From contig OZ244937.1 of NCBI GenBank assembly GCA_965222075.1, forward strand, positions 4,032,001 to 4,096,000: DNA of 64,000 bases, written 5' to 3'. A model generated the notes under the pieces. It did not search any database. It worked only from the letters and a program-made list of their open reading frames with translations, and was not told the origin of the DNA. The stretch's first letter is position 1. Every line of letters starts with the position of its first letter. The DNA is from Candidatus Latescibacterota bacterium (GTDB lineage: Bacteria; Latescibacterota; UBA2968; GCA-2709665). The position numbers and the translations under genes were made by a program. Below are positions 40,050 through 60,200 of the stretch, in pieces.

Positions 40050-40140
40050 TCCCAAGGACCGAAAAAAGTTTGACATTCCCCTTTTGTGACTGCTATTTAT
40101 CCAGATGATGGCGTGTCTGAACAAACCAAAAGGAGGTGTT

Positions 40141-41025: not shown

Positions 41026-41120
41026 TGAAAGGGCAAACGGCCCTATCCCTCCACCTCCGGGCACGGCGCACAGGCCTTCCACAAGGCCGAACTTGAAAAT
41101 TTTTGAAAGGAAGATCAACT

Positions 41121-41975
41121 ATGGACGCACGCGAACGCTACTTCTGGGACCTCACCGGATACCTGGTGGTCCGGAACGTCCTCACCCCCGATGAAATCGC
41201 CGCCGCCAACGAAACCGTCGAACGCTATACGGACCACATCCAGGCGGGCGAAGACAACGCGCTGGCCGGGGAGTCCGAGCGGCTGAAGGGCACCGGGCGG
41301 CCGATGCTCACCGGCATGCTCGAATTTGAAAAACCCTACTGCGAGCCTTTCCGGAACATGCTGGTCCACCCGGTTGTGGTGCAGCGCCTGAACACTATGT
41401 GCAGCACGGGCTTCCGCCTCGACCACGGCCCCTGGGTCATCACCAGCCCAAAAGGCACGTCGGGCCACCGGATGCACGGGTCGGGGCAACCCCACAGGCC
41501 CCACGTGGCCTACCACCACCAGAACGGCGCCACCTATTGCGGCGGCGTCACCGTTGCCTGGCAGTTGACCGACTGCCCCAAAGGCATGGGGGGATTCGCC
41601 TGTGTGCCCGGCAGCCACAAATCCCGTTTGTCCATGCCCGGAGGCGTGAGCACCGGCGACAACGACATGGGCCTCATCGTCCAGCCGGAACTGAAGGCCG
41701 GAGACGTGCTCTTCTTTATGGACAGCGCCCAGTCCCACGGCGCCCTGCCCTGGAAAAGCGAAGTTACCCGCCGCTCCGTCCTCTTCAAATATGCGGGCCG
41801 GACGGCCATCCGCAGCGGCCGGGAGTTTGCGCCTCCCGAAATCTACTGGGGAGAGGAACTGGTGGAAGACATGACCGAAGAACAGCGCGCTGTCATGTAC
41901 GGCCCTTATTCCAACCACCGGGGCGAAGTCCCCTTCCTCACCGTAGAGGATGACGGCACGGTGAGGGTGGAATAG
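41121..41975 (+). CDS. PhyH-like dioxygenase (non-canonical HxS motif), paralog of 40141
   Basis: WDLTGYLVVRNVL, MHGSG, GGFACVPGSHK, KAGDVLFF...HGALPW, RRSVLFKY. Confidence 0.88.
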   Translation: MDARERYFWDLTGYLVVRNVLTPDEIAAANETVERYTDHIQAGEDNALAGESERLKGTGRPMLTGMLEFEKPYCEPFRNMLVHPVVVQRLNTMCSTGFRLDHGPWVITSPKGTSGHRMHGSGQPHRPHVAYHHQNGATYCGGVTVAWQLTDCPKGMGGFACVPGSHKSRLSMPGGVSTGDNDMGLIVQPELKAGDVLFFMDSAQSHGALPWKSEVTRRSVLFKYAGRTAIRSGREFAPPEIYWGEELVEDMTEEQRAVMYGPYSNHRGEVPFLTVEDDGTVRVE

Positions 41976-43706: not shown

Positions 43707-44750
43707 TCAACGAATTTCCAGTTCTCCTTTGCGATACGCACGCAGAAAATTCTTACAAAGAGGATCTTTCCCCAGGAGCATATCCTCGGCAAGCCGGTAA
43801 GGTTCTGCCTTCCGATCCAGGGAGAAAACATGCTGAGGGTTGCTGGTCACCGGATCGATAATCCCGCTGTCCGAACCGGCCTCAACGGCCAGAATGGTGA
43901 AAACGTCGTTAATAAGTTGGCGGCACGGCAGTCCGAAAGAGATATTGCTGAACCCACCTGCAATGTGGATTTTGGACCCGTACTTCTCTCGTAGCCGGCG
44001 AATGGCCTCGAAGCAGTGATTGCCAAATTCCGAATCTACCGAAATCGGGAATACCAGAGGATCGACGTAAATATCCTGAATCACAATCCCTTTGGCCAGG
44101 GCCGCGCCGATCATACGCGAAGCGTTGGAGACCCGTTCCTCGTCGTTCTGCGGCATGCCGCTCTCGCCGGCAGCCGTCACAACCACGCGGGAATCGTAGC
44201 GCCTGGCTATGTCTAAGGCCTCAAGGCGTTCCAGCGAAGCCGAGTTCAGCAGCGTCCGGCCTGCCCTGCCGTCGCAGGCTTCAAGCCCCACCCGGATCGT
44301 CTCGATGTTGGAGGAGTCCACAGACAGTGGAACCGGGCACACCTGCTGCACGGTGCGCACCAGCCACTGCATGGCCTCCTTCTGCTCCTCAAGGCGCAGT
44401 GAGATTTCGTCCACATTCAGATCTAAGAAGTCCGCCCCGGCATCCACCTGGCGCTGGACCAGCCGGTGCAGGTAGGCCAGTCCTTCACCGGCATCAGGCT
44501 CCTGCCCGGACATCGCGGCCTGCACGGCGATCTTGACGTATTTGACACGTCCTTCCTCGTAATCCTGCGTCCGTTTGACCTCTTCGGGAATCACGAGGTA
44601 GCGGCGTTTCTTTTGGGTGTCGTAATAGCGGACCGCCTCCATCCCATCGGGATTCTTCGTGACAAGCTTTCCTTTTCTCAGCACTACCCGGGTGGTATGG
44701 ATGTTTTCACCGATAACGATAAATTCACCTTCTCGACCGTCTATCTTCAC
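43707..44750 (-). CDS. Pterin-binding methyltetrahydrofolate:corrinoid methyltransferase (MeTr/AcsE or MetH Fol-domain-like)
   Basis: IVIGENI, GADFLDLNV, PLSVDS, LLNSAS, YVDPLVFPIS, GFSNISFGLP, IIDP. Confidence 0.87.
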   Translation of the reverse strand: MKIDGREGEFIVIGENIHTTRVVLRKGKLVTKNPDGMEAVRYYDTQKKRRYLVIPEEVKRTQDYEEGRVKYVKIAVQAAMSGQEPDAGEGLAYLHRLVQRQVDAGADFLDLNVDEISLRLEEQKEAMQWLVRTVQQVCPVPLSVDSSNIETIRVGLEACDGRAGRTLLNSASLERLEALDIARRYDSRVVVTAAGESGMPQNDEERVSNASRMIGAALAKGIVIQDIYVDPLVFPISVDSEFGNHCFEAIRRLREKYGSKIHIAGGFSNISFGLPCRQLINDVFTILAVEAGSDSGIIDPVTSNPQHVFSLDRKAEPYRLAEDMLLGKDPLCKNFLRAYRKGELEIR

Positions 44751-44760
44751 CGTGTCCTCC

Positions 44761-46362
44761 TCATTTCGTCCGGGCGTGGTGGTCCCGCTCCAGAAAGGTG
44801 TTCGCCCAGGCGCTGGTGCCTTTCAAGGCGCCATCCTTGAAGATCACCGGCCTATCCAGCATCTTCTCTTCATCTCCGTATACCTTAAGCCGCTCATAGG
44901 CCAGCGACCAGATGCACTCCTTCTCTCCCACCTCGCACTTCCCCTGGCGCGTTCCTCCGCAGGGGCCGTTGCGCTGGTTTTTAACGCATTGCGACTCGGG
45001 GCAGAGAAACGCGATATCCGGCAATGAGCAGTCGCCGCAGTCCTGACAATCGAAGCACAGTATCTTCACCGCCTGTTCGGCGCCATGCACGGCCTTCTGC
45101 AGGCCTCTCCCGGCGCGCTCGACCGCCTGGAAGATCTTCTTGCCGATACGAAACGCCAGGCGCCCCTTTTCGAAGACTTTGTCGTGCACCGAGCGGTTGA
45201 TTTTATAACCCAGGGAAACGCGTTGTCTGGAGGCCCTCAAGACCTCCGGACGCTTCGAATGGCGATATTGGCGGTTGATCCTGGTCGAGCTGAGCCCCGT
45301 CGTCGTATCGGGCTCAAAGAAAAAAAACTCCCCGGGCTGGTGGAAGAGGACCTCCTGAACAAAGTCTTTCCAATCCCCTTCTCCGAAGCGGCCGGCAATC
45401 TCTAAAATCCGCTCATAGTCCTCGTACTTCAGGTGTCCCCCCAGGTATACACCGCGATATCCCAGTCCTCTGGCAATGGCGCACTGCTTTGCGGCGAACT
45501 CCAAAAAGAAGGCCTTGCCCTTATCGCGCGACCGGGCGTGCTTTTGGGTCAATGCAAGCAGTTCATCCGTTACGATCACTCCGGGGATGTTGCCCGCGTG
45601 AAAAAACCGGGCCGCAGCCGGGCTGAGCACATAAACGTTGGCCAGCACCGGCACCTGGAGATCGTGAAGCGCCATATACTTCAACAACTCGTCCTGTTTG
45701 CGCGCGTCATACCCGATCTGGTTGATGATGAACGCAGCGCCACTCTCAACCTTTTTGGCCAGCTTGAAATACTGCGGCATCACCTCACGTTCGTAGCGCT
45801 TGTGGTTGTTCACCACTGCGCCTAAGAAAAAATGCGTGGGCGCCAGAACATGATCGGCCCTGCCACTGTCCACCCGCATACCGGAATTCATCTCGAAGAA
45901 CATCTTCAACAGGCCAACCGAGTCGATATCAAACACACCGCCTGCCTGCCCATTATATCCGCTGACAGGATAGTCGCCCGACAGCGCCAGCACGTTGTTG
46001 AATCCTTCGCTGGCGAGTTGCCAGCCTCTGCCCAGCAGGGCATTCCGGTTCCAGTCCTTGCACGAAAGGTGAATGATGACCTCCTGCCCCCGGGCCAGCA
46101 GGTCGGTTCCCATGGTATCGGCGTTGATCATGGCGTTGCCGCCTGGATTATCGGTGATACTCAGGGCGTGCACCTGCGGATGTTCGGCAAGTTCTCGCGC
46201 AAGCTTCAACACCAGGCGCCCACGGCGCTCGGTAATGACGCCGCGAGAATTGACCAGTTCCACGCAGGTAACGAACGTATCCGTCTCCTGAAGCAGGTAG
46301 CGCAAGGCGTGCTTCTGCCAGGCGCCCAGGCTGTGGTTCGCTTTCTCAGGGGGTGTAGCCAT
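44761..46362 (-). CDS. Methylenetetrahydrofolate reductase (MetF-like) fused to a C-terminal MetV/MTHFR_C Cys-rich domain
   Basis: SITDNPGG, HLSCKDWNRNAL, NVLALSGD, KKVESGAAFIINQIGYD; C-terminal CQDCGDC..CPESQCVKNQRNGPCGG..KCEV..ECIW. Confidence 0.9.
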   Translation of the reverse strand: MATPPEKANHSLGAWQKHALRYLLQETDTFVTCVELVNSRGVITERRGRLVLKLARELAEHPQVHALSITDNPGGNAMINADTMGTDLLARGQEVIIHLSCKDWNRNALLGRGWQLASEGFNNVLALSGDYPVSGYNGQAGGVFDIDSVGLLKMFFEMNSGMRVDSGRADHVLAPTHFFLGAVVNNHKRYEREVMPQYFKLAKKVESGAAFIINQIGYDARKQDELLKYMALHDLQVPVLANVYVLSPAAARFFHAGNIPGVIVTDELLALTQKHARSRDKGKAFFLEFAAKQCAIARGLGYRGVYLGGHLKYEDYERILEIAGRFGEGDWKDFVQEVLFHQPGEFFFFEPDTTTGLSSTRINRQYRHSKRPEVLRASRQRVSLGYKINRSVHDKVFEKGRLAFRIGKKIFQAVERAGRGLQKAVHGAEQAVKILCFDCQDCGDCSLPDIAFLCPESQCVKNQRNGPCGGTRQGKCEVGEKECIWSLAYERLKVYGDEEKMLDRPVIFKDGALKGTSAWANTFLERDHHARTK

Positions 46363-46455
46363 AGCTATATACTCACAATGTGAAGCAGCTCTGCAAATTG
46401 CTGTTCTCGCGGTTCCTTCTCGATGCGTGTCACGTCACCTCACACTCCTGAAGGA

Positions 46456-47400
46456 TCATCCGTCCTTGCGAATCTGCTCCGTCTGCCTGGCCACCGTTGC
46501 AAGCTGGTCTTCATCCCATGCCTCTTGCTGCTGCAATGCATACAGCGATGTATAACCGTCCGACCAGTCCGGGGGAACCAGGCAGGGGCGGTCATCGTGG
46601 TGTGCCCAGCGTACAGGGTTACCCCGTACAATGGTTCCTTCGTATCGACTGGGGAGTGGATTGGGAGTGTAGGTAAATGCATCGGCAGACGAATACGCGT
46701 TCAGCAGCAGGGGACGCCCCCTGTCGGAAAGATTTGGCCTGGAGCCATGAATTACACGACAGTTATGAATGGTGATGGACCCGGCCGGCCCCGTCAGGTA
46801 CTTGACCTTCTCCGTATCGATGCGTTTGACGTCTTCGCCGCCTATGCAGCCCACCCATTGATCCCTGGCATCGTATTGGTTGAAGAGTTCGCCATTGTGG
46901 CTGCCCGGGATGGCGCCAAGCGGACCCTGATCGTCGCCCACATCATGAAGATAAAGGCCTATTGTGAGCGGACTGTAGTTGGTGTGTGGCCAGTACGTAA
47001 TGTCCTGATGCCACTTTACCTCCTCGCCGCCTTCTGCCCATTTGAAATTCAGTTTGGAGTGGTGGAATTTCACATCCGGCCCCACCAGATCGGCTGCCAC
47101 GTCGGCAATGATCGACTGCGAAGCGAACTCCCAGTAGGCCGGGTGATGTTCCACGGGGCTGCTCAACCGACGAAGACGCGGATCGTCCGCCGTGTGACCG
47201 GGCTCCAGATCGAACACGACGTCCGACTTGCTCACGGAACGGCTGCGCTGCACCATTTCGTTTGTGACGTCAATCAGGCGCTCAACCCAGTCCTGCGGCA
47301 CAATGGATTCAACGAGCAGGTATCCGTTATCAAAGTAGAATTGACGTTGCTCCTGGGTGAGCACCTCAGGTTTGTGAGACAATATCTCCTCGGGCGTCAT
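46456..47400 (-). CDS. PhyH-like Fe(II)/2-oxoglutarate dioxygenase
   Basis: FHHSKLNFKW, WHQD, IPGSH, HGSRPNLS..GRPLL. Confidence 0.92.
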   Translation of the reverse strand: MTPEEILSHKPEVLTQEQRQFYFDNGYLLVESIVPQDWVERLIDVTNEMVQRSRSVSKSDVVFDLEPGHTADDPRLRRLSSPVEHHPAYWEFASQSIIADVAADLVGPDVKFHHSKLNFKWAEGGEEVKWHQDITYWPHTNYSPLTIGLYLHDVGDDQGPLGAIPGSHNGELFNQYDARDQWVGCIGGEDVKRIDTEKVKYLTGPAGSITIHNCRVIHGSRPNLSDRGRPLLLNAYSSADAFTYTPNPLPSRYEGTIVRGNPVRWAHHDDRPCLVPPDWSDGYTSLYALQQQEAWDEDQLATVARQTEQIRKDG

Positions 47401-47587
47401 CGAACAGCCTCCTTCTATGAGAAACCAACGATGAGGTTGCGACTGAGCTATGCGAAATTCAGAATTTAGACAAACCACTTCTCTTCAGCAAGCCATATTG
47501 CCGTTGTCCAAACGAACATAATGTTGTATTTTGTCAGCAGCACCGACCGATTGTCGGCGGTAGACCACTGGCGAAGAGAGGAGCTTT

Positions 47588-48451
47588 ATGGAACAATGCA
47601 CGGTATTGGGCACAACCGATCTCCAGGTGAGCCGCCTGGGATTTGGGGCTGCCCGGATTGGCGAGGGCGTGCCCCCCGACCGGGTGGAAGTCCTGCTCAA
47701 CACCCTCCTTGACCTGGGTATCACCTTTATCGACACGGCGGATTGTTATGCAAATAGCGAAGCGCTGATCGGCCGCTTCCTCGGTCATCGTCTGCAGGAG
47801 TGCGTTCTGGCCACCAAGTGCGGCTGCATCATCGGTGGGGCCAAGGGCGAACCCTACTCACGATCCATCATCGCCGAGAGCATCGACCGCTCCCTGCAGC
47901 GACTGGGCGTTGACCACCTTGACCTGGTGCTGCTCCACACCTGCTCGGCGGAGGTGCTGCGCGCCGGTGAGGCGGCCGAGGCGCTGCTGCAGGCGAAGGT
48001 AGCCGGCAAGGTGCGGTACACAGGGTACAGCGGCGACGGGGAAGACGCCCTGCAGGCGATTTCCATGGGAGCTTTCGATGCCCTCCAGGTGACCTTCAAC
48101 CTGGTGAACCAGGTGGCACTGGGGGATGTGTTGCCGGCGGCAGAGCGGGCCGGAATGGGCGTGATCGCCAAGCGTCCCATCGCCAACGCCCAGCTCCTCA
48201 ATACGGGTTCTCCCTACTTCCGCGAAGGAGGGCATTGGGACCCGGTGCGGCAGCTGCTGGCAGAGGAAGGAGTCTGGGAGGATGCACTGGAGCTCTCCCT
48301 GCGCTTCACCCTATCCCACGACGTCATCAACAGCGCCATCGTCGGCACCACCGATGCCGATCACGCACGGGCCAACGCTCGGCGCTCGGCGGCAGGGCCT
48401 CTGCCGTTACATGTCGTGGAGGCCCTTCATCGGTTGGGGCGCGATTTCTAA
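47588..48451 (+). CDS. Aldo/keto reductase
   Basis: LGTTDLQVSRLGFG, FIDTADCY, LATKCG, SLQRLGVDHLDLVLLH, GKVRYTGYS. Confidence 0.93.
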   Translation: MEQCTVLGTTDLQVSRLGFGAARIGEGVPPDRVEVLLNTLLDLGITFIDTADCYANSEALIGRFLGHRLQECVLATKCGCIIGGAKGEPYSRSIIAESIDRSLQRLGVDHLDLVLLHTCSAEVLRAGEAAEALLQAKVAGKVRYTGYSGDGEDALQAISMGAFDALQVTFNLVNQVALGDVLPAAERAGMGVIAKRPIANAQLLNTGSPYFREGGHWDPVRQLLAEEGVWEDALELSLRFTLSHDVINSAIVGTTDADHARANARRSAAGPLPLHVVEALHRLGRDF

Positions 48452-48469
48452 GAAGCTGTCTTAAAACCC
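48451..48469 (+). mobile_element. Solo IS/MITE terminal inverted repeat-like sequence
   Basis: AGAAGCTGTCTTAAAA is 15/16 identical to the reverse complement of 61697-61712 and shares CTGTCTTAAAACCC with 61578-61591. Confidence 0.5.
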
Positions 48470-48549
48470 CCAGCGGTCATCGGCTGGCGGCGGTCCGAGT
48501 ACAGCCCATTGTTATGAAGCTGTTCTGATACTGCACCTGAGACGCTACA

Positions 48550-49653
48550 TCATTCATAAATGTCGAGCGGCTTCCCCAGAACATCGAACCTGGGTTCAAC
48601 ACCCAGGCCGGGGGCTTCCGGTGCAAAGAGCTTTCCCGATTCGACTGCCGGGCCTGGGCAGCCCGTGGAGATCGTGGTGTAGTTGTGCAGGTCCGTCGAG
48701 CTCATCAGAAGCTCCTGCGGCGTGGAAACCGCCAGATGTGCATGCGCAGCCGTTACGATCTCTCCTCCCCACACATCCTCGATCACCAGCGCGATCCCAT
48801 GTTCCACACACAGATCTCGAATCCGGCGAGACTTCGTCAGTCCACCCTCCCTCGAGACCTTGATGCTGAGGACCTCTGCGGCCCGATCTGCGATCATCCG
48901 TTCGACCATTCGAATATTCCCCACGCATTCGTCGAGTTTCATCGGATGGCTTGTGCTGCGCCGAACATGCAAACACGCCTCATAGGTAAGACAGGGCTGT
49001 TCTACATAGAAGTCCAGGTCTTGTACCGCACGCACAACGCGAACGGCTTCATCCATACGCCAACCCGTGTTGGCATCCACAAATGCGCGTTCTCCCGGCT
49101 TTAGATTGGGAACAGTAGCGCGAATTCGTTCGATATCCTCATCGGGGTCCGAGCCCACCTTGATCTGGAATACCCTGTACCCGGCTTCCCGGTATTTTTG
49201 CATCTCGCCCGCCATCGCATCGGGCGCAGCCTGAGGAACCACCCGGTATATCGGTGCGTACTCTGAGAGTTTCCCTCCCAATAGCATGTAGACGGGAAGA
49301 CCCGTGCTTTTGCCAAGGATATCCCAGCAGGCGGCATCGAAGGCGGACTTGGCGTATCCATGCCCTTTCAGGACTTCATCCATAATACGTTCAATTCGCC
49401 CGATCTGCCGCGGATCTTCTCCCAGTAACGCCCGGGCCAAACGCGGCGCCGCAGACCGGACGCCTTCCGGGTATGCCTCTGCGTAATTGCCTTCCATCGG
49501 GCAGCATTCGCCACACCCATAGACACCGGCGTCCGTTTCAATGGTGACCACCGTTGTATCGCCAACTTCAAAAACGCGCCCGGGCCCCCACGTGTAAGCC
49601 CCCCCAACATATGGAAGACCCGTGCGATAAACGGCAACTCGACTGATTCGCAC
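48550..49653 (-). CDS. Enolase superfamily protein of the cis-3-hydroxyproline dehydratase (LhpI)/hydroxyproline-betaine epimerase (HpbD) type
   Basis: GECCP..NY..AYPEG, LKGHGYAKSAFDAACWDILGK, FQIKVG, VDANTGW, YVEQPC, KLDE, IEDVWGGEI. Confidence 0.8.
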   Translation of the reverse strand: MRISRVAVYRTGLPYVGGAYTWGPGRVFEVGDTTVVTIETDAGVYGCGECCPMEGNYAEAYPEGVRSAAPRLARALLGEDPRQIGRIERIMDEVLKGHGYAKSAFDAACWDILGKSTGLPVYMLLGGKLSEYAPIYRVVPQAAPDAMAGEMQKYREAGYRVFQIKVGSDPDEDIERIRATVPNLKPGERAFVDANTGWRMDEAVRVVRAVQDLDFYVEQPCLTYEACLHVRRSTSHPMKLDECVGNIRMVERMIADRAAEVLSIKVSREGGLTKSRRIRDLCVEHGIALVIEDVWGGEIVTAAHAHLAVSTPQELLMSSTDLHNYTTISTGCPGPAVESGKLFAPEAPGLGVEPRFDVLGKPLDIYE

Positions 49654-49659
49654 GACGCA

Positions 49660-50991
49660 TCACCCCGCACAAAGTGTCAGTGTCTCAAGCAACTCGACAC
49701 TGGTATCGGCCCACAGCCCTGCGGTCCCTTTTGGCGCGCGGACGTGCCGACAGAGCCTGGTCTCATAGCTTCCCTCGTCGAGTGCCCGATCGGTTGCTAC
49801 GTAGCCCACGGAACCATTCGCCAGTCCCACGACCATCGTCTGACCCATGGAAGATCGGGCCTTGATGTCCAGCCCCACCTCGGCAAACACCTCTCCGTGC
49901 AGTCCGACAATCCCCAGATCGCCAATCCGCAGCGCTTGAACGGGGATGTCCCACTCCGACGCGCTTTCGTTGAGAAGAACGATCTCGCGCGCATATACCC
50001 ACTCCGTGTCGCCCCAGTTCTCGCCGGACGCATACAGTTCCCTGGCCGAGGCAAGCTCCTCGGCAGTCGGTGTCCTTGCGCGGAAGGGAATCCGCCTCAG
50101 GATTGCTCCCAGGGCGATATCCGATTTGAAGTCATCCTCCCGGAGCAAATTCCATTGTTTCCATGCCTCCGCCGCGACGACGTTGCCCACCCGCTCAATC
50201 TCGCCATAGGCGTGCGTGGGACGCCGGGCGGGACGGGTAAAATCGCAATTGTTTATGTCGCCCTGGCATCCGTTGGCCATACTGGCAACAAACTCCCCTC
50301 CGGCCATCCGCTGGAGAGCAGCGCCGAAAGCACTGAAGTAGTCAGCAGACACCCAACTCCCCTGAGACGTACCCACGTAGTGCAGACTCAGGTTCGCATA
50401 CACCGCAACAGGATGCCGTCCCGTCGACTCACGGATCACCAGCAGGCCCAACTGGGGATCCGTCGGCCCCGCCGGCCTGATTGCATCCGGATTCTCGTAC
50501 CCCGGGTTCATGCGAACCGAACCGTCCACCATGTGCCAGCGACGGTTATGGACCTCTTCGCCGCAGTTCCCCGACGCGTGCGCCGCCTCGGCGGGAACTT
50601 GGTCCCGGGCTGCCATAAGCATCGCATCGGCGATCCTCGGGATGAGGGACTCCGCATACGCCGGCTCATCGGGCGTACCCAGTGCGCCCACCGCGCTGGG
50701 TGCCGTATGCGTATGCGTTGACGATATCAGCACATGATCGGGTGGAATCCCCGTCTGCTCATTGATCCGGGCCTTGGCAGCTTCAACCACGCGAACCGGA
50801 ACATCAATCAGATCACAGGTTATCAGCCCCAGGGTCATCTCCCCGTCACTTAACGCAACCGCTCTCGCATACAGCTCATCGTAGATGCGATCGGCCGTCC
50901 GATCTTGGAAACTGCCGACGAGGTGACACCCCAGGTTCGGCGTGATATTTGTCTTTGCCGCTCCCGCCTTCAACGTTCCCATCGTTGCCAT
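49660..50991 (-). CDS. Neutral/alkaline ceramidase-like metallohydrolase of unknown substrate
   Basis: GAAKTNITP, STHTHTAP, NRR, GPTDP, ANLSLHY, SADYF, NGCQGDIN, GEVF, LANGSVGY, EGSYE. Confidence 0.8.
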   Translation of the reverse strand: MATMGTLKAGAAKTNITPNLGCHLVGSFQDRTADRIYDELYARAVALSDGEMTLGLITCDLIDVPVRVVEAAKARINEQTGIPPDHVLISSTHTHTAPSAVGALGTPDEPAYAESLIPRIADAMLMAARDQVPAEAAHASGNCGEEVHNRRWHMVDGSVRMNPGYENPDAIRPAGPTDPQLGLLVIRESTGRHPVAVYANLSLHYVGTSQGSWVSADYFSAFGAALQRMAGGEFVASMANGCQGDINNCDFTRPARRPTHAYGEIERVGNVVAAEAWKQWNLLREDDFKSDIALGAILRRIPFRARTPTAEELASARELYASGENWGDTEWVYAREIVLLNESASEWDIPVQALRIGDLGIVGLHGEVFAEVGLDIKARSSMGQTMVVGLANGSVGYVATDRALDEGSYETRLCRHVRAPKGTAGLWADTSVELLETLTLCAG

Positions 50992-51128
50992 TCCTCTCCT
51001 CAGATGTGTGCGTGTCCTTCACTCGCCTCCCTCGGAAAAGCTCAGCCGCGCCCCGGTAGCGGCGTCGGCTGGAGCGAATAGAAAAATTCTGGGAGTTATT
51101 TCTTAACATCGACCTTCGGACCTGATGT

Positions 51129-52763
51129 TTAAGACACTGCCGATGATACAAATTCCGTCGGCATCGGCTTGAATTGGCACCCTTCCACGAACACTTCGAA
51201 GAAATCCGGTGTCGTCTCCAGTTCGATATGTTCGATCTCTTTCACCAGCGCCTCTATGGACTCGCGTCTTTTCCGGGAAAGCAGCACTTCTCTGGCCCCC
51301 TGAACCGCCGCATTCCCGATTTTCACAATCCGATCTTCGGCCACCGGGACCAGAAACCCGATCTCAATCGCATTTTGAACATTCACATAATTGGCGAACC
51401 CCCCGGCCAGAAAAAGCTTGCCGATATCCGCCGGATTGATGCCAAAATGCCGCATCACGATAAACTGACCGCAATAATTCGCCGCCTTGGCCTGCGCCAG
51501 ATTGCTGGCATCTTCCCGGGACAACGTAATCCCGTACTCGGGCACAACCGTCATCTCATAAGACCTATCCGTAAACATCCCCTTGGGCTTCATACGGCCG
51601 TGCCGTCGAAGCTCCGCCAGCAGATCGATCAAACCGGAGCCACAGATCCCTTGCGGTTGCACATCGCCGATTGTTCGATACACAATCTCATCGTCTTCTA
51701 TGCGGATTGACTCAATCGCACCTTCATAACCCGGCATCCCGTACTGAATCAGCCCGCCCTCAAACGCAGGCCCGGCCGGGCAGGAAGCCGTCAGCAGCCG
51801 CCCCGGGTGTCCCACCACCACCTCCGTATTGGTCCCCACATCCACCAGCATCACCACACCTTCCTGAGACGCCATATCCATCGCCACCAGGTCGGCTGCC
51901 GTATCCGCCCCTACATGGCTGGCAATCAGCGGCATCCCGTAGACCTTCCCCTTCGGATTTGCCCGCAGCCCCAGGCGCCGCGTGCCTTCAAGCAGCGACG
52001 TCGTCTCCCGTTCGCCCGCAAGATACGCATGCTCCACCCCGGACTTATAAGGTTTCTGACCGATGCCCTGCACATCCAGCTTAAAAAAAATATCGCGCAT
52101 CGTGGAATTGCCCGCTACGACCACCTCGTAAATCTCCTGACGGACAAACCCGAAGCGTTTCCCCAGCTCCAGGATTTCGTGGTTGAGCGCATTCACAATC
52201 GCCTTCTGCAACTCCCCCTGAAACTCTCCATCGTAAGAAATCCGGTGCATTACATCGCTGCCTCCGAACCGCTGGGGGTTCTCGAAGGAACTGACGTGAA
52301 CACTCTTTCCCGTCTCCAAGTCCACCAGGTCCATCACCACCGTTGTGGTGCCCAGATCCATCGCAATCCCGTACAGGTGCCCGCGGTACGTATCGACCAC
52401 CTCGCCGTCGTAAAAAACAACATCCCCCCGGCGTGTGACCAGGGGGGCCGATTCAACGGGTTTTTCCCGCGTGACGGAAAGGATCTTGGGGGTGCGCCTC
52501 AGAGGCGAGAATTGGATATCAACCCCGGCGTCTTCAACCACCACCTGGCAGGCAAGGCGGTAGTTCTCCCGCAAAAACGACTCCGCATCGGTCCGGGGCC
52601 CCAGCGCCTCCATCCCCCGCTTGATCTCAACCACACACTCGTGACAGTGCCCGGTGCGCCCGCAGGAGGTGGGCACCTGGACCGCCAGTTCATCCGCATA
52701 GTCAAAAACCGTCTTCCCGGCTACAAGGTCACATGCCTTGCCATCGTGAGATATTGTACCCAT
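51129..52763 (-). CDS. Reductive activator of corrinoid proteins (RACE/RamA-type, DUF4445/ASKHA ATPase with N-terminal 2Fe-2S domain)
   Basis: CGRTGHCHEC...LACQ ferredoxin motif; DLGTTT, NPQRFGGSDV, DVGTNTE, CPAGPAFEG, GICGSG, LAGGF, IGNAA. Confidence 0.92.
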   Translation of the reverse strand: MGTISHDGKACDLVAGKTVFDYADELAVQVPTSCGRTGHCHECVVEIKRGMEALGPRTDAESFLRENYRLACQVVVEDAGVDIQFSPLRRTPKILSVTREKPVESAPLVTRRGDVVFYDGEVVDTYRGHLYGIAMDLGTTTVVMDLVDLETGKSVHVSSFENPQRFGGSDVMHRISYDGEFQGELQKAIVNALNHEILELGKRFGFVRQEIYEVVVAGNSTMRDIFFKLDVQGIGQKPYKSGVEHAYLAGERETTSLLEGTRRLGLRANPKGKVYGMPLIASHVGADTAADLVAMDMASQEGVVMLVDVGTNTEVVVGHPGRLLTASCPAGPAFEGGLIQYGMPGYEGAIESIRIEDDEIVYRTIGDVQPQGICGSGLIDLLAELRRHGRMKPKGMFTDRSYEMTVVPEYGITLSREDASNLAQAKAANYCGQFIVMRHFGINPADIGKLFLAGGFANYVNVQNAIEIGFLVPVAEDRIVKIGNAAVQGAREVLLSRKRRESIEALVKEIEHIELETTPDFFEVFVEGCQFKPMPTEFVSSAVS

Positions 52764-52771
52764 GCGACGGT

Positions 52772-53056
52772 CTATTCCCCAGCTTCAATGAAGGCGCCCT
52801 CACCCGCCTCCGTCTCCCAGGCGCTGCGATAGTCCAGCTTGTCCCCACCACACATCAGCAGTTTGCCTCCCGGACGGGGCTTCCTCTGGTTCCTGCAACC
52901 AAACTCGGCCGTACATTCGTCGAAGCGATTCTTATAAGGACACCGCCGGGTGGAAAGTTCATCGGCATGGGCCACCATGCCGGCGAACAAGTCTGTAATC
53001 TTATCCAGCCGCTTTTGATATTCCTCTTTGTCAATTTTTTGCATCGTTGGGCTCAC
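52772..53056 (-). CDS. Small uncharacterised 4-Cys protein
   Basis: Overlaps the stop of the corrinoid gene and ends 8 bp before the activator gene; RCPYKNRFDECTAEFGC-x14-C. Confidence 0.75.
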   Translation of the reverse strand: MSPTMQKIDKEEYQKRLDKITDLFAGMVAHADELSTRRCPYKNRFDECTAEFGCRNQRKPRPGGKLLMCGGDKLDYRSAWETEAGEGAFIEAGE

Positions 53057-53838
53057 GCATTAGATTTGACCTCTTCCTCTTGCTCCTCAAGCAACTGCTT
53101 GGCCAGGGCCACGCACGCCATCGCATCCTTGCCGTACCCGTCCGCGCCCATATCGTCCGCAAACTCCTGCGTTACCGGCGCGCCTCCCACCATAATCTTG
53201 ACATCCTCCCGCATATCCGCATCGATAAACGCCTCGATGGTCCTGCCCATATTGGGCATTGTCGTTGTCAGCAGCGCCGACATCCCCAGCAGGGGCGCCC
53301 CGTGCTCCTCCACCGCATCCATAAACTCGTCCTCCGACGTGTCCACCCCCAGGTCGTGGACGACAAACCCGGTGCCTCGAAGCATCATAATGCAGAGATT
53401 CTTTCCGATATCGTGCAAATCCCCTTTCACCGTGCCCATAATCACCGTACCGATCGGCTCGATGCCCGACGCGGACAGAATCGGTTCAATATACGCCATA
53501 CCGGCCTTCATCGCCCGGGCGCAGGCCAGCACTTCTGGTACAAAAATAAAGTTCTCTCTAAATTTGATTCCGACGATCCCCATTCCCGCAACCAACCCGT
53601 CGTCCATAATTTCCAGCGCTTCGGTGCCCCCCTCTAAGGCCGCTTTGGTCAACCGGTCTACGGTATGGTGTTCTCCGTCGATCAGCGCCGCGCCAATCGC
53701 CTGCATCGCGGGGCTGGCAGTGGCAAATATATTGATCGTCCGCTTCCGCTCGTCCTCCCGCTCGATAAACTCCTCAATCTCATCCCGGATGAATTCATTT
53801 TCGATATCCGTAATTTCCGCCATTCTTTCCCTCGTCAT
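53053..53838 (-). CDS. Corrinoid (B12-binding) methyl-carrier protein with acidic N-terminal extension
   Basis: Cap domain GLVAGMGIVG..F....FVPEVL; DxHxxG in GTVKGDLHDIGKN; SALLTTT; KIMVGGAPV. Confidence 0.95.
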   Translation of the reverse strand: MTRERMAEITDIENEFIRDEIEEFIEREDERKRTINIFATASPAMQAIGAALIDGEHHTVDRLTKAALEGGTEALEIMDDGLVAGMGIVGIKFRENFIFVPEVLACARAMKAGMAYIEPILSASGIEPIGTVIMGTVKGDLHDIGKNLCIMMLRGTGFVVHDLGVDTSEDEFMDAVEEHGAPLLGMSALLTTTMPNMGRTIEAFIDADMREDVKIMVGGAPVTQEFADDMGADGYGKDAMACVALAKQLLEEQEEEVKSNA

Positions 53839-53843
53839 TCTGA

Positions 53844-53876
53844 CCTGCCTGTCGAGCCGAGCTCGGCGCAGGCAGG
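53844..53876. repeat. 33-bp palindromic dispersed repeat
   Basis: CCTGCCTGTCGAGCCGAGCTCGGCGCAGGCAGG, 31/33 identical to 56797-56829. Confidence 0.8.
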
Positions 53877-53949
53877 AAACAGACTATCCGTGTTCATTTG
53901 TGTTCATGATCGAATTACTCGCCTTCATCTGTGGTTGTTTTTCCCTGCC

Positions 53950-54996
53950 TCAATTCGCCGCATGCTCCTTATGCCAGCTCCGCACCGCCCTGGGAATCTC
54001 CTTGAGGTTCTCAATCGAGGTCTGCAGCGGAATCGCGCACTCCGGGCCGACAAGCTGCACGCCGGCATCCAAGTTCTTGTAGACCTCCTGCCGGACCTCT
54101 TTCGGCCCTTTTGAAAACAGCGTCTCAGGATTGTTGATATTGCCTACCAGGGAAATCCGCTCCTTCACCACCTGCATGGACTCCTGGGGTTCGTTCTTGG
54201 AGTCATAATGAAACGCCGCCATCCCCGTCTGGGCGATGTACTCCATCCGGTCCACCGTCCGCCCGCAGATATGCAGAATCAGCGGAATCGGAATCCGCTC
54301 CACGAACTCAATGTGCAGGTCGCGTAAATACCGCTTGTAATAGTCGCCGCTCACCAGATCCCCGGTCGCGTGGTCCGGCAGCGTCAGCGCATCGGCGCCC
54401 GCCTCGATCTGCGCCACCCCGAACGCCACGGTCGCTTCCTTCATCTTATCCAGACAGGCCTTTGTCTTGTCCGGATCGTCTAAGGACATCAGCAGGAAAG
54501 GCTCCACTCCGAAACAGTGGTAGCCCAGCGACCAGGGCCCCATCGTCTTTCCAATCACGGCCACCTCATCTCCGAATTCCACCTTGAGCATTTTGATCGC
54601 ATCCAGCACGCATTTCGTATCCTGATGTGTCAGAAGGTCCGGCGGAATCCGGATATCGTCCACATCCTCCCAGATCGGTTCGCGCATCTTCACCGTCGGC
54701 CAGTTGTCCTTCTGTTCCCACTGAATCTTGCACCCCAGCGCCGAAGACTCCTGGATAATCGTAAACACCGGCATAATGGTATCAAACCCCAATTCGGTAT
54801 GTCCGGTAGCCGCTAAGCGGGCCATCAACTCCGGATCCCGATTTGCATCCGGAAACGGCGCATCCACCAAGTCCATGAGTTCCACCGTCGCCACGGACGT
54901 GGGATTGCAAACCGCCGTCCGGTCCACCGGTTCTCTGCTCAGCGCAGCTAAGACGCGTTCTCGGCCGGCCATCGGCTTTACAGGCTGCGTATCCAT
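53950..54996 (-). CDS. MtaA/CmuA-family (UroD-fold) corrinoid methyltransferase
   Basis: ERVLAAL...VDR, FPDANRDPELMARLA, GPWSL, AQIEAGAD; Zn ligands LHICG and GPEC; LVGNINN. Confidence 0.9.
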   Translation of the reverse strand: MDTQPVKPMAGRERVLAALSREPVDRTAVCNPTSVATVELMDLVDAPFPDANRDPELMARLAATGHTELGFDTIMPVFTIIQESSALGCKIQWEQKDNWPTVKMREPIWEDVDDIRIPPDLLTHQDTKCVLDAIKMLKVEFGDEVAVIGKTMGPWSLGYHCFGVEPFLLMSLDDPDKTKACLDKMKEATVAFGVAQIEAGADALTLPDHATGDLVSGDYYKRYLRDLHIEFVERIPIPLILHICGRTVDRMEYIAQTGMAAFHYDSKNEPQESMQVVKERISLVGNINNPETLFSKGPKEVRQEVYKNLDAGVQLVGPECAIPLQTSIENLKEIPRAVRSWHKEHAAN

Positions 54997-55065
54997 AATG
55001 TGATCTCCTGGCCTGAAATCCATGATCCTTACCATGTTGTTTCGCGGCCCCACCCCTCACATCCC

Positions 55066-55090
55066 AGGGCGCACGGCTGTGCGCCCCTAC
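55066..55090 (-). repeat. GTAG-type REP palindrome
   Basis: Minus strand GTAGGGGCGCACAGCCGTGCGCCCT. Its TAG is the stop codon of the 55087-55716 gene. Confidence 0.65.
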
Positions 55091-55716
55091 TGTTGCTGGC
55101 TTGGCGCCGCCAGAACACCGCGGGATGCCGTCATCTCTTGCTCCCGAATCGCCGCCCGAACGTTCGGTGCTCGAACCAGCAGCAATCCCACCATCTCATC
55201 GTGGGCGTGCCCGCAGGAAAAGGCGGCCCTGTCCACACTCTGGTCCAGCATCTCTCCAAGCTTGATCAACCCGCCCGTAATCGCCGAAATCCGCCGCTCC
55301 CTGTCCTTCCCGTCTCCTTCGGCGCCCACCTGGTAGCCCCCGTCCCCAAGGCTGGAAACCGTTATCTTCAGCCCGGATTTCTTATCTAAGATCCCCAAGG
55401 GCCGGGCTTCGGCCTCGCTGTCCGGACCCAGCTTGCACGCCTCTAAGAAAACCCGCTTGCAGGCCAGTTCGTGCTCCGCCCCGCAGGGAAACCGGAGCAG
55501 CCCCTCCGGCGTCTGCTCCATCCCGCCCAGCGCCTCCATGGTTTTCACCACAGACGCAATCCGACCCTCAGCCCCTTCCAGATGGCTGTACGTATGGACC
55601 AGGTACGCCGGTCCTCCATCCTGCTCCTGGCGGTAGAGCGCGATCGTAATATCGTGGAAATGCGGGTCCATCGGGACCAGTTCAATCCGTCTGCCGATAT
55701 CAACTGTCTGTCCCAT
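55087..55716 (-). CDS. Uncharacterised protein with two internal FxCGxxH repeats; first gene of the methyltransferase operon
   Basis: GAGG RBS before MGQTVDIG; internal duplication RI...LGxM...FxCGxxH. Confidence 0.8.
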   Translation of the reverse strand: MGQTVDIGRRIELVPMDPHFHDITIALYRQEQDGGPAYLVHTYSHLEGAEGRIASVVKTMEALGGMEQTPEGLLRFPCGAEHELACKRVFLEACKLGPDSEAEARPLGILDKKSGLKITVSSLGDGGYQVGAEGDGKDRERRISAITGGLIKLGEMLDQSVDRAAFSCGHAHDEMVGLLLVRAPNVRAAIREQEMTASRGVLAAPSQQQ

Positions 55717-55814
55717 AACGCGATCCTCTGATAACACTTCCTGCTGACAGCGTGCCTATATTTTTCTTGACAGCACGGAACCAAGTCCGCTATTTTTAGT
55801 CAACATTGTGCTGA

Positions 55815-55825
55815 TGGTCTGACCA
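55815..55825. promoter_or_regulatory. FadR-subfamily GntR operator
   Basis: TGGTCTGACCA palindrome in the divergent promoter region between the operon and the GntR gene. Confidence 0.7.
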
Positions 55826-55961
55826 ATTTTAACAATAAAGATTAACCCAAAACCGGGGAATTGTAAAGCGAAATTTCAGGGTTTGAATTGAAAATTTGAG
55901 CTTCTCAACAGAAATCATACATATATAACTGAAAAATAGAAACTTATGTGAGGAATTCTAA

Positions 55962-56738
55962 ATGGCTCTCAACACGCAAAAACAGAAAAACCCGGCATTC
56001 GAAGAGATGAAGCCGGTCACACGAACCTCGCTCAGCGACGAGATCGTTGCCCAGATCGTCGACCTGATCTCCCGGGATGTGCTCAAACCGGGAGACCGGC
56101 TGCCGCCCGAAAGAGAACTCTGCAAACAATTCGATGTGGGCCGCACCTCCCTGCGGGAAGCGCTCCGTTCCCTCGCCGTCATGGGCATCCTGGAAGGCCG
56201 GGTCGGCGAAGGCACCTTTGTAAGCAACAACAGCAGCAAATACCTGGAAAAATCCCTGCAATGGGGCCTGCTGTTGGACACAAAAAAAGTCCAGGACCTC
56301 ATCGAAACCCGCCTCATGCTGGAATCCCAGACCGCGTTTCTGGCCGCACAGCGGGCCACAAAAGAAAACCTCCGGGAAATCCAGCAGACCATCCGGGGAA
56401 TCGAAGCCTCTCTCGATCAACCCAAGAAATTCCTGGAATATGACTTACGGTTCCACCTGACCATCGCCCGGTCCACGCAGAATTCGATCCTCTACAACCT
56501 CCTCAGCATGATCCGCAGTTATCTCCAGGAGTGGATCAAGAACAGCCTGGAAGAACCCTCAACGCATACAATGGAAATACGCGCCCGAATGTCTCTGGAC
56601 GAACACAAAAAAATCCTGCAATCCCTCCAAGCCCGTGATGCCGAAGGCGCACGGCAGGCCATGAATGAACATATTCTCTCCAGCAGCGTTGACCTTCAGA
56701 CGCAGATCACAGAAAACGCCGGAGACGATCCGGAGTGA
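55962..56738 (+). CDS. FadR/GntR-family transcriptional regulator (FCD domain)
   Basis: LKPGDRLPPERELCKQFDVGRTSLREAL, GEGTFV, DLRFH, EHKKIL. Confidence 0.95.
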   Translation: MALNTQKQKNPAFEEMKPVTRTSLSDEIVAQIVDLISRDVLKPGDRLPPERELCKQFDVGRTSLREALRSLAVMGILEGRVGEGTFVSNNSSKYLEKSLQWGLLLDTKKVQDLIETRLMLESQTAFLAAQRATKENLREIQQTIRGIEASLDQPKKFLEYDLRFHLTIARSTQNSILYNLLSMIRSYLQEWIKNSLEEPSTHTMEIRARMSLDEHKKILQSLQARDAEGARQAMNEHILSSSVDLQTQITENAGDDPE

Positions 56739-58838: not shown

Positions 58839-60113
58839 TCAATCATTGTACAATCGGTCCAGCAGTCCTGCTGCCGTCTTCACAATCTGCTCTCCCACCC
58901 CCGGGCGGAAAACGCTCGCCTCGGCTTCGTACCCTCCCTCTTCAAAGGCCTTCCGGCCGGGCAAATAGCCCACGCTGTCATTGGCCAGTTCCAGCACCAT
59001 CGTCTGCCCAAACGGCGACCGCTCTTTGATCTCCAGCCCCAATTCCACCAAGAGTTCCCCCGGCGCCGTCACCAGGGCCAGGTTCCCCACCCGCAGGGCT
59101 TGAACCCAGGTCGGCGCCTCTTCCGGCACCTCATGAATCCGCTCCAGATTCCGCCGGGAAAACGCCCGCTCGCCCATTGTCCCCTTGCCCTGCTGCTGAA
59201 TCTCCCGGGCGTGGGCCAGGTCCGCTTCCGACGGGGCCTCCCGCCGCTTCAGCACCACCTCTTCCATTGCCGCTCCCAGGGGCGCATCGTCTGTAAACGC
59301 CATCTCATTCCATGCCCAGAAGACATCCGCAGCCACCAGCGCGGCCACCCGTTCCGTGTGCTGGTACCGGTCGTTTTTCGGCCGGACGCCGCCCATCACA
59401 TCGTGGTTGTTGATATCTCCGCATGCCCCGTTGGAAAGCGCCGCGACAAACCGCTCGCCCCGCATCCCCTGGATCAAGGCTGAAAAAAACCCGAAATAGT
59501 CCGCCGAAATCGCCCGTTCGTGGTCTCCGCCCCCCACGTAGTGGAGGCTGTAATTGGCCAGCAATCCGATCGTCTCACCCCCGGTCCGGCGCAGGCAAAG
59601 CGCCCCCACCTCCGGATCGACCGGACCTGCAGGTTCCACCACGTCCGGGTTCTCCAGGCCCGGATTTGTCCGCACAGACCCGTCCCTCATCCGGTAGCGG
59701 CGGTTGAACACCACCCGGTCTTGGTCCCGGCGCCCCCAGCCGACCTGGGCCGGCTGCCGTCCCTCCCACGCCAGCCGGACCGCATCCGCAATCCGCCCGA
59801 TCAGAAATTCCGTATACGCGTCCTCTCCCGTCTGGGCCCCCGTATGCGTGTGGGTGCAGCAGATCAACACCCGCTCAGGCGCAAGTCCCACAGCCTCCGC
59901 AATCTGCGCCTTCGCCCGGTCTAAGTAGACCCGTTTCACCCCGATCAGATCGCACACCACAACCGCGATCCCTTCGCCTTCCCGTTCCAGCACAAAACTC
60001 CGCACCTGCAGCGGATCGTGGACCACCTCTGCCCGCCGTTCGTGGAACAGCCCCGGGATCAACGTCCCCAGAGGCGGCGTAATATCCAGACAATACGCAC
60101 CGGCTTTTAGCAT
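58839..60113 (-). CDS. Neutral/alkaline ceramidase-like metallohydrolase, paralog of 49660-50991
   Basis: DITPP, HDPL, THTHTG, FNRRY, GPVDP, ANYSLHY, SADYF, NGACGDIN, LANDSVGY, GGYE. Confidence 0.8.
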   Translation of the reverse strand: MLKAGAYCLDITPPLGTLIPGLFHERRAEVVHDPLQVRSFVLEREGEGIAVVVCDLIGVKRVYLDRAKAQIAEAVGLAPERVLICCTHTHTGAQTGEDAYTEFLIGRIADAVRLAWEGRQPAQVGWGRRDQDRVVFNRRYRMRDGSVRTNPGLENPDVVEPAGPVDPEVGALCLRRTGGETIGLLANYSLHYVGGGDHERAISADYFGFFSALIQGMRGERFVAALSNGACGDINNHDVMGGVRPKNDRYQHTERVAALVAADVFWAWNEMAFTDDAPLGAAMEEVVLKRREAPSEADLAHAREIQQQGKGTMGERAFSRRNLERIHEVPEEAPTWVQALRVGNLALVTAPGELLVELGLEIKERSPFGQTMVLELANDSVGYLPGRKAFEEGGYEAEASVFRPGVGEQIVKTAAGLLDRLYND

Positions 60114-60200
60114 AGGGCCTCCTCCTTCTGCGGCCAATCGGCGTCCGTTATACCGGTGTTGTCCCACTCCGGGGTAACGCGTAGGGACTGACCCCCGACC

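Follow-up and report, generated by a model that had tools for sequence, protein, structure and literature searches.

A widely conserved MtaA-like/Unk216 gene pair in a variant of the bacterial corrinoid methyl-transfer hub

The closest described relative of the gene cluster discussed here is the modular corrinoid hub of aerobic Alphaproteobacteria such as Ruegeria pomeroyi and Phaeobacter inhibens (Mausz et al. 2025, PMC12478193). A split methionine synthase with a RamA-type activase has reportedly been described from this group as well (Price et al. 2018). Proteomics and knockouts in R. pomeroyi assigned two roles to MtgC, a corrinoid protein that stands alone, and to MtgD, a pterin-binding methyltransferase that works in both directions, namely the demethylation of glycine betaine via the MttB-family enzyme MtgB and the synthesis of methionine via the PF02574 enzyme MtgE. 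The system includes a RamA-type activase and MetF2, the gene of which adjoins the methyltransferase genes; a DUF1638 protein of Ruegeria is predicted to help in reductive recharging, and about 70 % of the genomes with MtgBCD are devoid of MetH (PMC12478193). The cluster treated here lies at positions 43,707 to 56,738 of a 64,000-nucleotide stretch (hereafter the window; contig OZ244937.1 of assembly GCA_965222075.1, positions 4,032,001 to 4,096,000) from a Candidatus Latescibacterota bacterium, the genome of which is a single contig of 5.36 Mb with a completeness of 97.6 %. It encodes an MtaA/CmuA-family methyltransferase (MtaA-like), a 216-residue protein that we call Unk216, a corrinoid carrier protein (CoP), a small protein with four cysteines (Cys4), a RACo-type reductive activase (RACo), a MetF-MetV fusion (MetFV) and a pterin-binding methyltransferase of the MeTr/MtgD type (MeTr) (Table 1). 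The system is real and strongly conserved; its hub is of a known kind, and the MtaA-like/Unk216 pair, its putative substrate-facing spoke, is uncharacterised.

Other described systems also bear on this locus. Type 1 mlp clusters of obligate anaerobes encode two or three MtaA-like proteins (Mlps) and no tetrahydrofolate (THF) methyltransferase, and have been proposed to serve methyl-sulfur or methyl-selenium metabolism (Kountz and Balskus 2023 preprint, PMC10418091). From acetogens, cdmBCA was described as a chloromethane system of the URO-D type that is unrelated (Bernhardt et al. 2026, PMC13222342). Moreover, aerobes were suggested in 1993 to have a cobalamin-dependent methyltransferase for dimethyl sulfide (DMS), an enzyme that had yet to be identified by 2019 (Kroeber and Schaefer, PMC6548844). 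The first-pass annotation of the window, made from the sequence alone, had seen no precedent for the architecture. This view has to be revised: the locus is a variant of the MtgBCDE hub in which an MtaA-like spoke replaces MtgB (PMC12478193). A published description of a cluster with the MtaA-like/Unk216 pair was not found in the literature; some may be contained in the supplementary data of PMC12478193 and PMC10418091.

When one genome per species was scanned with Unk216, 110 relatives were obtained, of which 80 were retained as loci. Their gene content was determined by tblastn of the window proteins (E<=1e-8, coverage >=50 %), and the counts are lower bounds, several of the 80 loci ending at contig edges. 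The genes for Unk216, the MtaA-like enzyme, CoP, Cys4 and RACo stand in constant order in 71–79 of these loci and are followed by those for MeTr and MetFV (last column of Table 1). Because the same gene order recurs so often in other genomes, the arrangement is far above chance. The loci belong to metagenome-assembled genomes (MAGs) labelled by their submitters as Latescibacterota, Poribacteria, Gemmatimonadota, Acidobacteriota, Alpha- and Betaproteobacteria and Spirochaetia, with at least seven phyla represented and a Latescibacterota MAG (93 %) as the closest relative; many of the carriers live in sponges or corals, others in soil, peat, groundwater and lakes. Two checks set beforehand went the way the first-pass annotation had expected. 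Both genes without a known family accompany the corrinoid genes, the MtaA-like gene adjoining Unk216 in 79 and Cys4 being found in 72 of the 80 loci. A substrate methyltransferase of the MttB/MtaB type does not belong to the cluster, since neither MttB (PF06253) nor MtaB is present in the own genome and MttB occurs in 3 of the 50 other carrier genomes. In the Poribacteria loci L027, L029 and L030 CoP is missing near Unk216, and a CoP with 82–84 % identity is encoded elsewhere in each genome.

The MtaA-like protein passes the models TIGR01463 (MtaA/CmuA family, 250.8 bits against a cut-off of 235.4) and PRK06252 (257.9 against 244), but misses the equivalog cut-offs of the coenzyme M (CoM) methyltransferases MtaA_Meth (235.8 against 400) and MtbA (200.1 against 600). 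Its closest solved structure is MtaA of M. mazei (4ay7, E 4.4e-53 over residues 30–355), with which the HxC and C ligands align. Alignment with relatives places its start probably at 54996 (348 aa) and that of Unk216 probably at 55716 (209 aa). The own genome has two URO-D members, HemE and this protein, which reaches a mean column identity of 83 % across phyla. In a quick maximum-likelihood tree the Poribacteria fall mostly together while the Latescibacterota and Gemmatimonadota labels, given by the submitters, are interleaved; this tree is not taken as a sign of gene transfer. The His-Cys-Cys zinc motifs (HxC...C) are invariant in 49 of 49 relatives. Within the UroD superfamily this triad marks S- (or Se-) methyltransferases, O-demethylases having carboxylates (Kountz and Balskus, PMC10418091); judged by the motif alone, a zinc site of the O-demethylase type, with a carboxylate replacing Cys, is not what this enzyme has. 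Since the zinc site is of the His-Cys-Cys type, it points to a soft-atom methyl compound as substrate of the spoke, be it a methyl-sulfur or methyl-selenium compound or, as for CmuA, a methyl halide. As to the supply of CoM, which the first-pass annotation wanted checked, one homologue of ComA (phosphosulfolactate synthase) is present (169 bits, G000:C1:1768778-1769497, also L089:7752-8537, adjoining a zinc alcohol dehydrogenase), but no ComB-E lies near it, and bacterial CoM genes were not searched for.

Unk216 has 1351 homologues at E<=0.001, and among the 120 listed none has a Pfam domain or a name beyond 'hypothetical'. In a library of 1.84 billion proteins it is represented by 283 clusters (50 % identity) of same-length relatives and fragments, and a profile search of these 1.84 billion representatives gave neither an informative fusion nor a distant sequence relative. 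The divergent members that were looked up, one of them from a Dehalococcoidia MAG, are nameless too. The AlphaFold2 (AF2) model (pLDDT 84.9, pTM 0.80) consists of two tandem copies of an alpha+beta unit, for which Foldseek found no match in the PDB at E<=0.001 and the ESM Atlas no usable one. KipI-like, urea carboxylase and bacterial microcompartment (BMC) shell domains were rejected as candidate folds, the best VIA-align Z score among 48,161 chains being 6.7, a level that the tool calls common. The FxCGxxH repeats announced by the first-pass annotation are there in two copies. Their residues C85, H89, C175 and H179, i.e., two Cys-x3-His pairs, are invariant, which suggests a metal site.

A structural role for Unk216 is suggested by complex prediction with three chains (Unk216, the MtaA-like enzyme and CoP) in three runs with three controls. 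The ipSAE values are 0.85, 0.84 and 0.85 (median 0.85), compared to 0.10 for the best control; in a benchmark the mark was attained by 58 of 80 solved complexes and by 2 of 110 mismatched pairs. The runs share at least 54 % of their contacts, with a partner pLDDT of at least 80, and since Unk216 has no solved relative the score is not the memory of a like complex. On the side of Unk216 the predicted interface comprises the invariant residues G15, R17, Y50, S51, R189, N192, V193 and R194, on that of the enzyme the invariant stretches 50-55 and 336-344 (alignment A2 numbering), the latter beside the zinc ligand C332. On CoP the predicted contacts fall on residues 195-234. Unk216 is thus predicted to dock as a partner subunit onto the active-site face of the MtaA-like enzyme, which would account for the pattern of conservation and for the strict adjacency of the two genes.

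It is improbable, in our view, that Unk216 has instead an accessory role, be it as a metallochaperone for the zinc site, in the redox chemistry or assembly of the carrier, or in regulating the enzyme. This idea is consistent with the position of the putative metal site outside the predicted interface and with a mean column identity of 49 % for Unk216, compared to 83 and 80 % for the enzyme and CoP. A precedent is the DUF1638 protein of the Ruegeria Mtg system (PMC12478193). However, its gene adjoins that of the MtaA-like enzyme in 79 of 80 loci, and the product is predicted to sit on the active-site face through invariant residues of its own, a position more in keeping with a permanent subunit than with a factor that binds for a time.

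On the hub side, CoP matches the MtgC-type NCBIfam model with 192 bits, under the cut-off, and is the sole high-scoring B12-binding carrier of the own genome. Its mean column identity among relatives is 80 %, and it is 44–46 % identical to plasmid-borne B12-binding proteins of Alphaproteobacteria. The genes for CoP and the MtaA-like enzyme are separated by a gap of 111 bases here and are unfused in all loci examined. The activase, encoded by a single gene in the own genome, has a 2Fe-2S ferredoxin domain, a middle domain and an ASKHA domain. In 37 of 51 relatives Cys4 and RACo share one reading frame, with Cys4 at the N-terminus; the other 14 have a separate Cys4. In five fused open reading frames (ORFs) that were checked, the Cys4 part runs from residue 1-5 to 81-100, and the RACo behind it is complete or nearly so. 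Cysteines C35, C44, C50 and C65 are invariant; the AF2 model of Cys4 is of low confidence (pLDDT 67.5). Because it is fused to RACo in most relatives, Cys4 is, by its sequence, no subunit in its own right but an N-terminal module that is accessory to the activase. Of the two uncharacterised subunits that had been announced, Unk216 with its lack of any family or fold match has therefore kept that status but the four-cysteine protein has not. In ten Poribacteria (G002-G005 and G007-G012), stand-alone PF02965 proteins (the MetH activation domain) of about 281–307 aa are encoded alongside the RACo-activated hub, and two reactivation devices may coexist there.

On the folate side, MetFV is the sole match to PF02219, i.e., the sole methylenetetrahydrofolate reductase (MTHFR), in the own 5.36 Mb genome, and MeTr is one of two Pterin_bind proteins, the other being FolP-like. 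The check for metH and metE suggested by the first-pass annotation was negative for both: PF02965 has no match and MetH was not found in the own genome, and a canonical two-domain MetE is absent from all 51 genomes searched (50 carriers and the own). The cluster is not itself a MetH either, as it contains no PF02574 gene in the window. Since it holds the sole MTHFR, carrier and MeTr, and MetH, MetE, MttB and MtaB were not found, the cluster is the only route of the own genome that links the folate methyl pool to any acceptor or donor. It probably underlies methionine synthesis in this organism.

The homocysteine end of such a route could be provided in several ways. The MetE-like frames of the 51-genome search are all single-domain (343-507 aa, at most 36 bits). 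Core-MetE-type proteins of about 345–370 aa are common, with frames in 32 of the 51 genomes, and the own genome has three short ones (e.g., G000:C1:888437-889411). Core MetE uses methylcobalamin, and these proteins might draw on the same corrinoid carrier. In addition, the own genome contains about 24 PF02574 genes (homocysteine S-methyltransferase/BHMT-like), many of them within the first 150 kb (e.g., C1:24858-152856). They are at most 28.6 % identical (over 231–239 aligned residues) to the cluster-linked form that other phyla encode after MeTr in 8 of the 80 loci, and their striking expansion may reflect the use of many host-derived betaines or sulfonium compounds as methyl donors.

The absence of MetH and of a canonical MetE keeps alive an alternative already raised by the first-pass annotation, that of a split thiol or homocysteine methylase. 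Here CH2=THF would be reduced to CH3-THF by MetFV, the methyl group passed on to CoP by MeTr and finally to a thiol by the MtaA-like/Unk216 pair. The acceptor could be homocysteine, making the cluster a four-part methionine synthase in which an MtaA-type module replaces the homocysteine domain of MetH, or sulfide, methanethiol, mercaptopropionate or selenide in biosynthesis or detoxification. Methylation of thiolates is the known chemistry of MtaA and of His-Cys-Cys sites, and the direction is, as general knowledge has it, the thermodynamically favourable one. The single MTHFR of the genome lies in the cluster, and 17 of the 50 other carriers have no PF02965 match, like the own genome. However, the remaining 33 do have one, in frames of at least 1184 aa (full-length MetH) in 19, as stand-alone proteins of about 281-307 aa in ten more, and as fragments or uncertain cases in 4, for which reason the cluster was rejected as a simple replacement of MetH. 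The PF02574 enzyme makes an MtaA-type homocysteine methylase redundant in the 8 clusters that encode it, and the about 24 PF02574 paralogues and the three core-MetE-like proteins could themselves be the homocysteine end in the own genome. Furthermore, an Rfam search of the whole window gave no riboswitch or other RNA family, including those that respond to S-adenosylmethionine, B12 or THF, and the regulator is of the GntR/FCD and not of a methionine type. We consider a relay running in the anabolic direction possible, though on balance doubtful. Two of the PF02965 matches (G001:C1:7166404-7167192 and G016:C1:3269615-3270514) have one in-frame TGA each, which could be a sequencing error, a pseudogene mutation or recoding.

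By analogy with the known hubs, we favour a different reading, in which the cluster is a modular corrinoid hub and its MtaA-like/Unk216 spoke, in place of MtgB or CmuA, works mainly on the methyl-donor side; we take the case for it to be evenly balanced. CoP would cycle between Co(I) and CH3-Co(III), MeTr would swap the methyl group reversibly between CoP and THF, and MetFV would join CH3-THF to CH2=THF, while RACo with its Cys4 module would re-reduce oxidised Co(II) at the expense of ATP. In the spoke itself, the MtaA-like zinc enzyme and Unk216 would form a heterodimer, Unk216 being seated on the active-site face of the barrel and touching the carrier. THF would then receive the methyl groups, which would be oxidised, or they would go to homocysteine where a PF02574 enzyme is present. 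The first-pass annotation was right in seeing a complete relay between X-CH3, cobalt and THF in that the set has its own activase and MTHFR, the substrate and the direction being putative.

Several features favour the donor reading. Full-length MetH is also present in the 19 carriers mentioned above, and since a PF02574 enzyme is encoded in 8 of the 80 loci the MtaA-like enzyme is not needed as a homocysteine methylase. The local GntR/FCD regulator is typical of inducible catabolism, and the MetF gene adjoins the methyltransferase genes as in the Mtg and cmu systems. The annotated recurrent neighbour clusters of the 80 loci include no transporter, which would fit a permeant or internally made substrate.

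Other points weigh against it. Transfer of a methyl group from a methyl-pterin to a thiol is exergonic by about 30 kJ/mol, so that the reverse reaction from DMS, methanethiol or methylmercaptopropionate (MMPA) needs a strong pull, and MtaA, the nearest relative with a solved structure, is characterised as acting towards thiols, in the acceptor direction. A methyl halide or a sulfonium compound as donor would remove the energetic objection. The sole MTHFR next to a consumer of methyl-THF, in a genome without MetH or canonical MetE, looks like an anabolic methionine synthase. The best NCBIfam matches of the regulator are NanR, LldR and PdhR, all under their cut-offs; these nearest named relatives sense small carboxylates, a poor fit to a gas such as a methyl halide. 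Finally, the Cys/His pairs of Unk216 lie away from the surface predicted to meet the enzyme, the complex of the two proteins is itself a prediction, and this computational analysis identified no substrate.

If methyl halides were the donors, the pair could be an unfused analogue of CmuA, that is, a dehalogenase for CH3Cl, CH3Br or CH3I that feeds THF in bacteria without cmuA, a special form of the donor reading that we judge quite unlikely. The TIGR01463 model is passed, MeTr and MetF are present in the way that CmuB and MetF2 reportedly accompany CmuA, and methyl halides are strong donors that permeate membranes, in keeping with the missing transporter. In the model, Unk216 bridges enzyme and carrier and could thus stand in for the domain fusion of CmuA. 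That cdmBCA was found only in 2026 suggests that such systems are still emerging (PMC13222342). However, the enzyme resembles methanogen MtaA far more closely, the regulator is of a type that suggests a carboxylate as effector, and none of the recurrent neighbours was seen to be related to halides. When 72,556 plasmids, a collection that may not hold a cmu plasmid, were searched by tblastn, there was no CmuA-like match, the proteins returned being UroD and unrelated URO-D members of less than 30 % identity.

More speculatively, the MtaA-like/Unk216 pair could be the long-sought cobalamin-dependent methyltransferase of aerobic bacteria for volatile methyl-sulfur compounds (DMS, methanethiol) or for methyl halides, delivering methyl groups to THF and methionine, with Unk216 as a novel type of subunit that would clamp the enzyme to the carrier and shape the substrate pocket; we rate this proposal as rather unlikely.

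The neighbourhood of the cluster offers few further hints. PhyH, APH kinase and Ldh_2 genes recur, and none of these potential substrate clues is conserved across phyla. An APH-family kinase gene lies near the cluster in 13 loci of Gemmatimonadota, Latescibacterota and Betaproteobacteria (e.g., L034:15624-16643, L010:6725-7897). Its best NCBIfam match is S-methyl-5-thioribose kinase with 51–67 bits against a cut-off of 275, a lead and a weak hint at methylthio metabolism. An Ldh_2 dehydrogenase gene follows the cluster in 6 loci. Directly after MeTr, 25 of the 80 loci encode a PF13769 ('Virulence_fact') protein of about 90–100 aa (e.g., L078:15589-15885), often in clusters without MetFV. Six Poribacteria loci (L008, L012, L016, L017, L018 and L024) have an HNH endonuclease gene and a small ORF between the MtaA-like and CoP genes (e.g., L016:12172-12579), and type ISP and Eco57I-like restriction-modification genes are found in Poribacteria upstream of the cluster or between activase and MetFV.

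In the window itself, four genes at 46456-50991 separate RACo from MetFV. They do not belong to the system: three of them are found at this position in no other locus than that of the closest relative, L001, from which the ceramidase-like gene is missing too. In other lineages the RACo/MetFV junction is occupied by a different PhyH gene, restriction-modification genes or genes without a known family, and the junction PhyH of Poribacteria, with 29 % identity over 78 residues, is not orthologous to that of the own lineage. The block is a lineage-specific insert outside the conserved system. Within 25 kb, the window encodes three PhyH-family dioxygenases, two ceramidase-like proteins (49660-50991 and 58839-60167) and two enolase-superfamily proteins (37225-38505 and 48550-49653), a catabolic neighbourhood rich in paralogues. 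The families and minus-strand positions given by the first-pass annotation for the genes of the methyl-transfer set agree with the ORF list and the family scans.

Table 1. Genes of the cluster and its surroundings. Positions are those of the 64,000-nucleotide window; families are from the ORF list and Pfam/NCBIfam scans of the window proteins; the last column gives the loci with a homologue.
Feature	Position	Strand	Evidence	Loci
GntR/FCD-family regulator	55962-56738	+	Pfam GntR 71.6 bits, FCD 92.5 bits; divergent from the operon	42/80 (divergent beside Unk216)
Unk216 (216-residue ORF)	55087-55737	-	two FxCGxxH motifs; no Pfam/NCBIfam match	
MtaA/CmuA-family corrinoid methyltransferase (URO-D fold)	53950-55053	-	URO-D 219 bits; HxC and a later C	79/80
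Corrinoid carrier protein CoP, MtgC/MtbC-like	53053-53838	-	B12-binding_2 and B12-binding; DxHxxG motif	72/80
Cys4 (94-residue ORF, four Cys)	52772-53056	-	no Pfam/NCBIfam match	72/80
RACo-type ATP-dependent reductive activase	51129-52763	-	RACo_C_ter 224 bits, Raco_middle 140, Fer2 34	71/80
Ceramidase-like gene	49660-50991	-	Pfam/NCBIfam; in the four-gene insert	
Enolase-superfamily gene	48550-49653	-	near cis-3-hydroxy-L-proline dehydratase, 457 bits against a cut-off of 500; in the insert	
Aldo-keto reductase	47588-48451	+	Pfam/NCBIfam; in the insert	
PhyH dioxygenase	46456-47478	-	Pfam/NCBIfam; in the insert	
MetF-MetV fusion (MetFV)	44761-46362	-	MTHFR 38.6 bits, residues 65-250; DUF5981/MTHFR_C 87.9 bits, residues 421-503	36/80
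MeTr/MtgD-like methyl-THF:corrinoid methyltransferase (pterin-binding TIM barrel)	43707-44750	-	Pterin_bind 79.9 bits; NF005719 204.9 against a cut-off of 259	53/80
Further PhyH gene	40105-41025		family scan	
Further PhyH gene	41103-41975		family scan	

Four RNA libraries from a single sponge metatranscriptome study contain contigs, at low depth, that agree with parts of the genes for MeTr, MetFV, RACo, CoP, the MtaA-like enzyme and the GntR regulator with 0 mismatches. The organism or a near-identical strain thus inhabits sponges, and the genes of the cluster are probably transcribed there; such matches are weak evidence of expression, as DNA may be carried over, and contigs cannot reveal operon structure.

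It took until 2025 for experiments to establish the hub design, in which substrate spokes are interchangeable around one corrinoid carrier, a reversible THF methyltransferase and an ATP-driven activase; the substrate was glycine betaine and the hosts were marine Alphaproteobacteria (PMC12478193). The MtaA-like/Unk216 pair would represent a second, equally conserved spoke, present in at least seven phyla. The identity of its substrate would fill a gap in the aerobic cycling of methyl-sulfur, methyl-selenium or methyl-halide compounds and would give a function to the widespread hypothetical protein family Unk216.

How, then, does the cluster compare with known systems? The methanogen enzymes MtaA, MtbA, MtsA and MtpA have the same fold and His-Cys-Cys zinc ligands as its MtaA-like enzyme and likewise work with a small corrinoid protein that has the DxHxxG motif. 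In contrast to these CoM methyltransferases, the present enzyme is bacterial, stays under the MtaA and MtbA cut-offs, and is coupled via MeTr to THF and not to methanogenesis. To our knowledge the methanogen enzymes do not need a partner like Unk216, whereas the present one is always paired. The resemblance to the cmu pathway extends to an MtaA/CmuA-family methyltransferase, a corrinoid module, a pterin-binding methyltransferase and an MTHFR, which could together carry methyl groups from X-CH3 via cobalt and THF to CH2=THF in aerobes. However, the methyltransferase and corrinoid domains that are fused in CmuA are encoded here by separate genes, together with a dedicated activase, and CmuC was not seen in the cluster. 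From the type 1 mlp clusters, as they are described, the cluster is set apart by its single MtaA-like enzyme and by the presence of MeTr and MetFV, and also by its carriers, which are Poribacteria, Latescibacterota, Gemmatimonadota, Acidobacteriota, Proteobacteria and Spirochaetia where the mlp clusters are found in obligate anaerobes. With MtgBCDE, finally, it has in common a separate corrinoid carrier, a pterin-binding methyltransferase, an activase of the RACo/RamA family and an MTHFR paralogue adjoining the methyltransferase, as well as an occurrence in aerobes that often have no MetH and, in 8 of the 80 loci, a PF02574 gene in the cluster. It differs in the Cys4 module that is added to its activase, in having MetF fused to MetV as its MTHFR and in that no DUF1638 gene was seen in the cluster, as well as in its spoke, which is an MtaA-like URO-D enzyme with an obligatory Unk216 and not an MttB-family MtgB.

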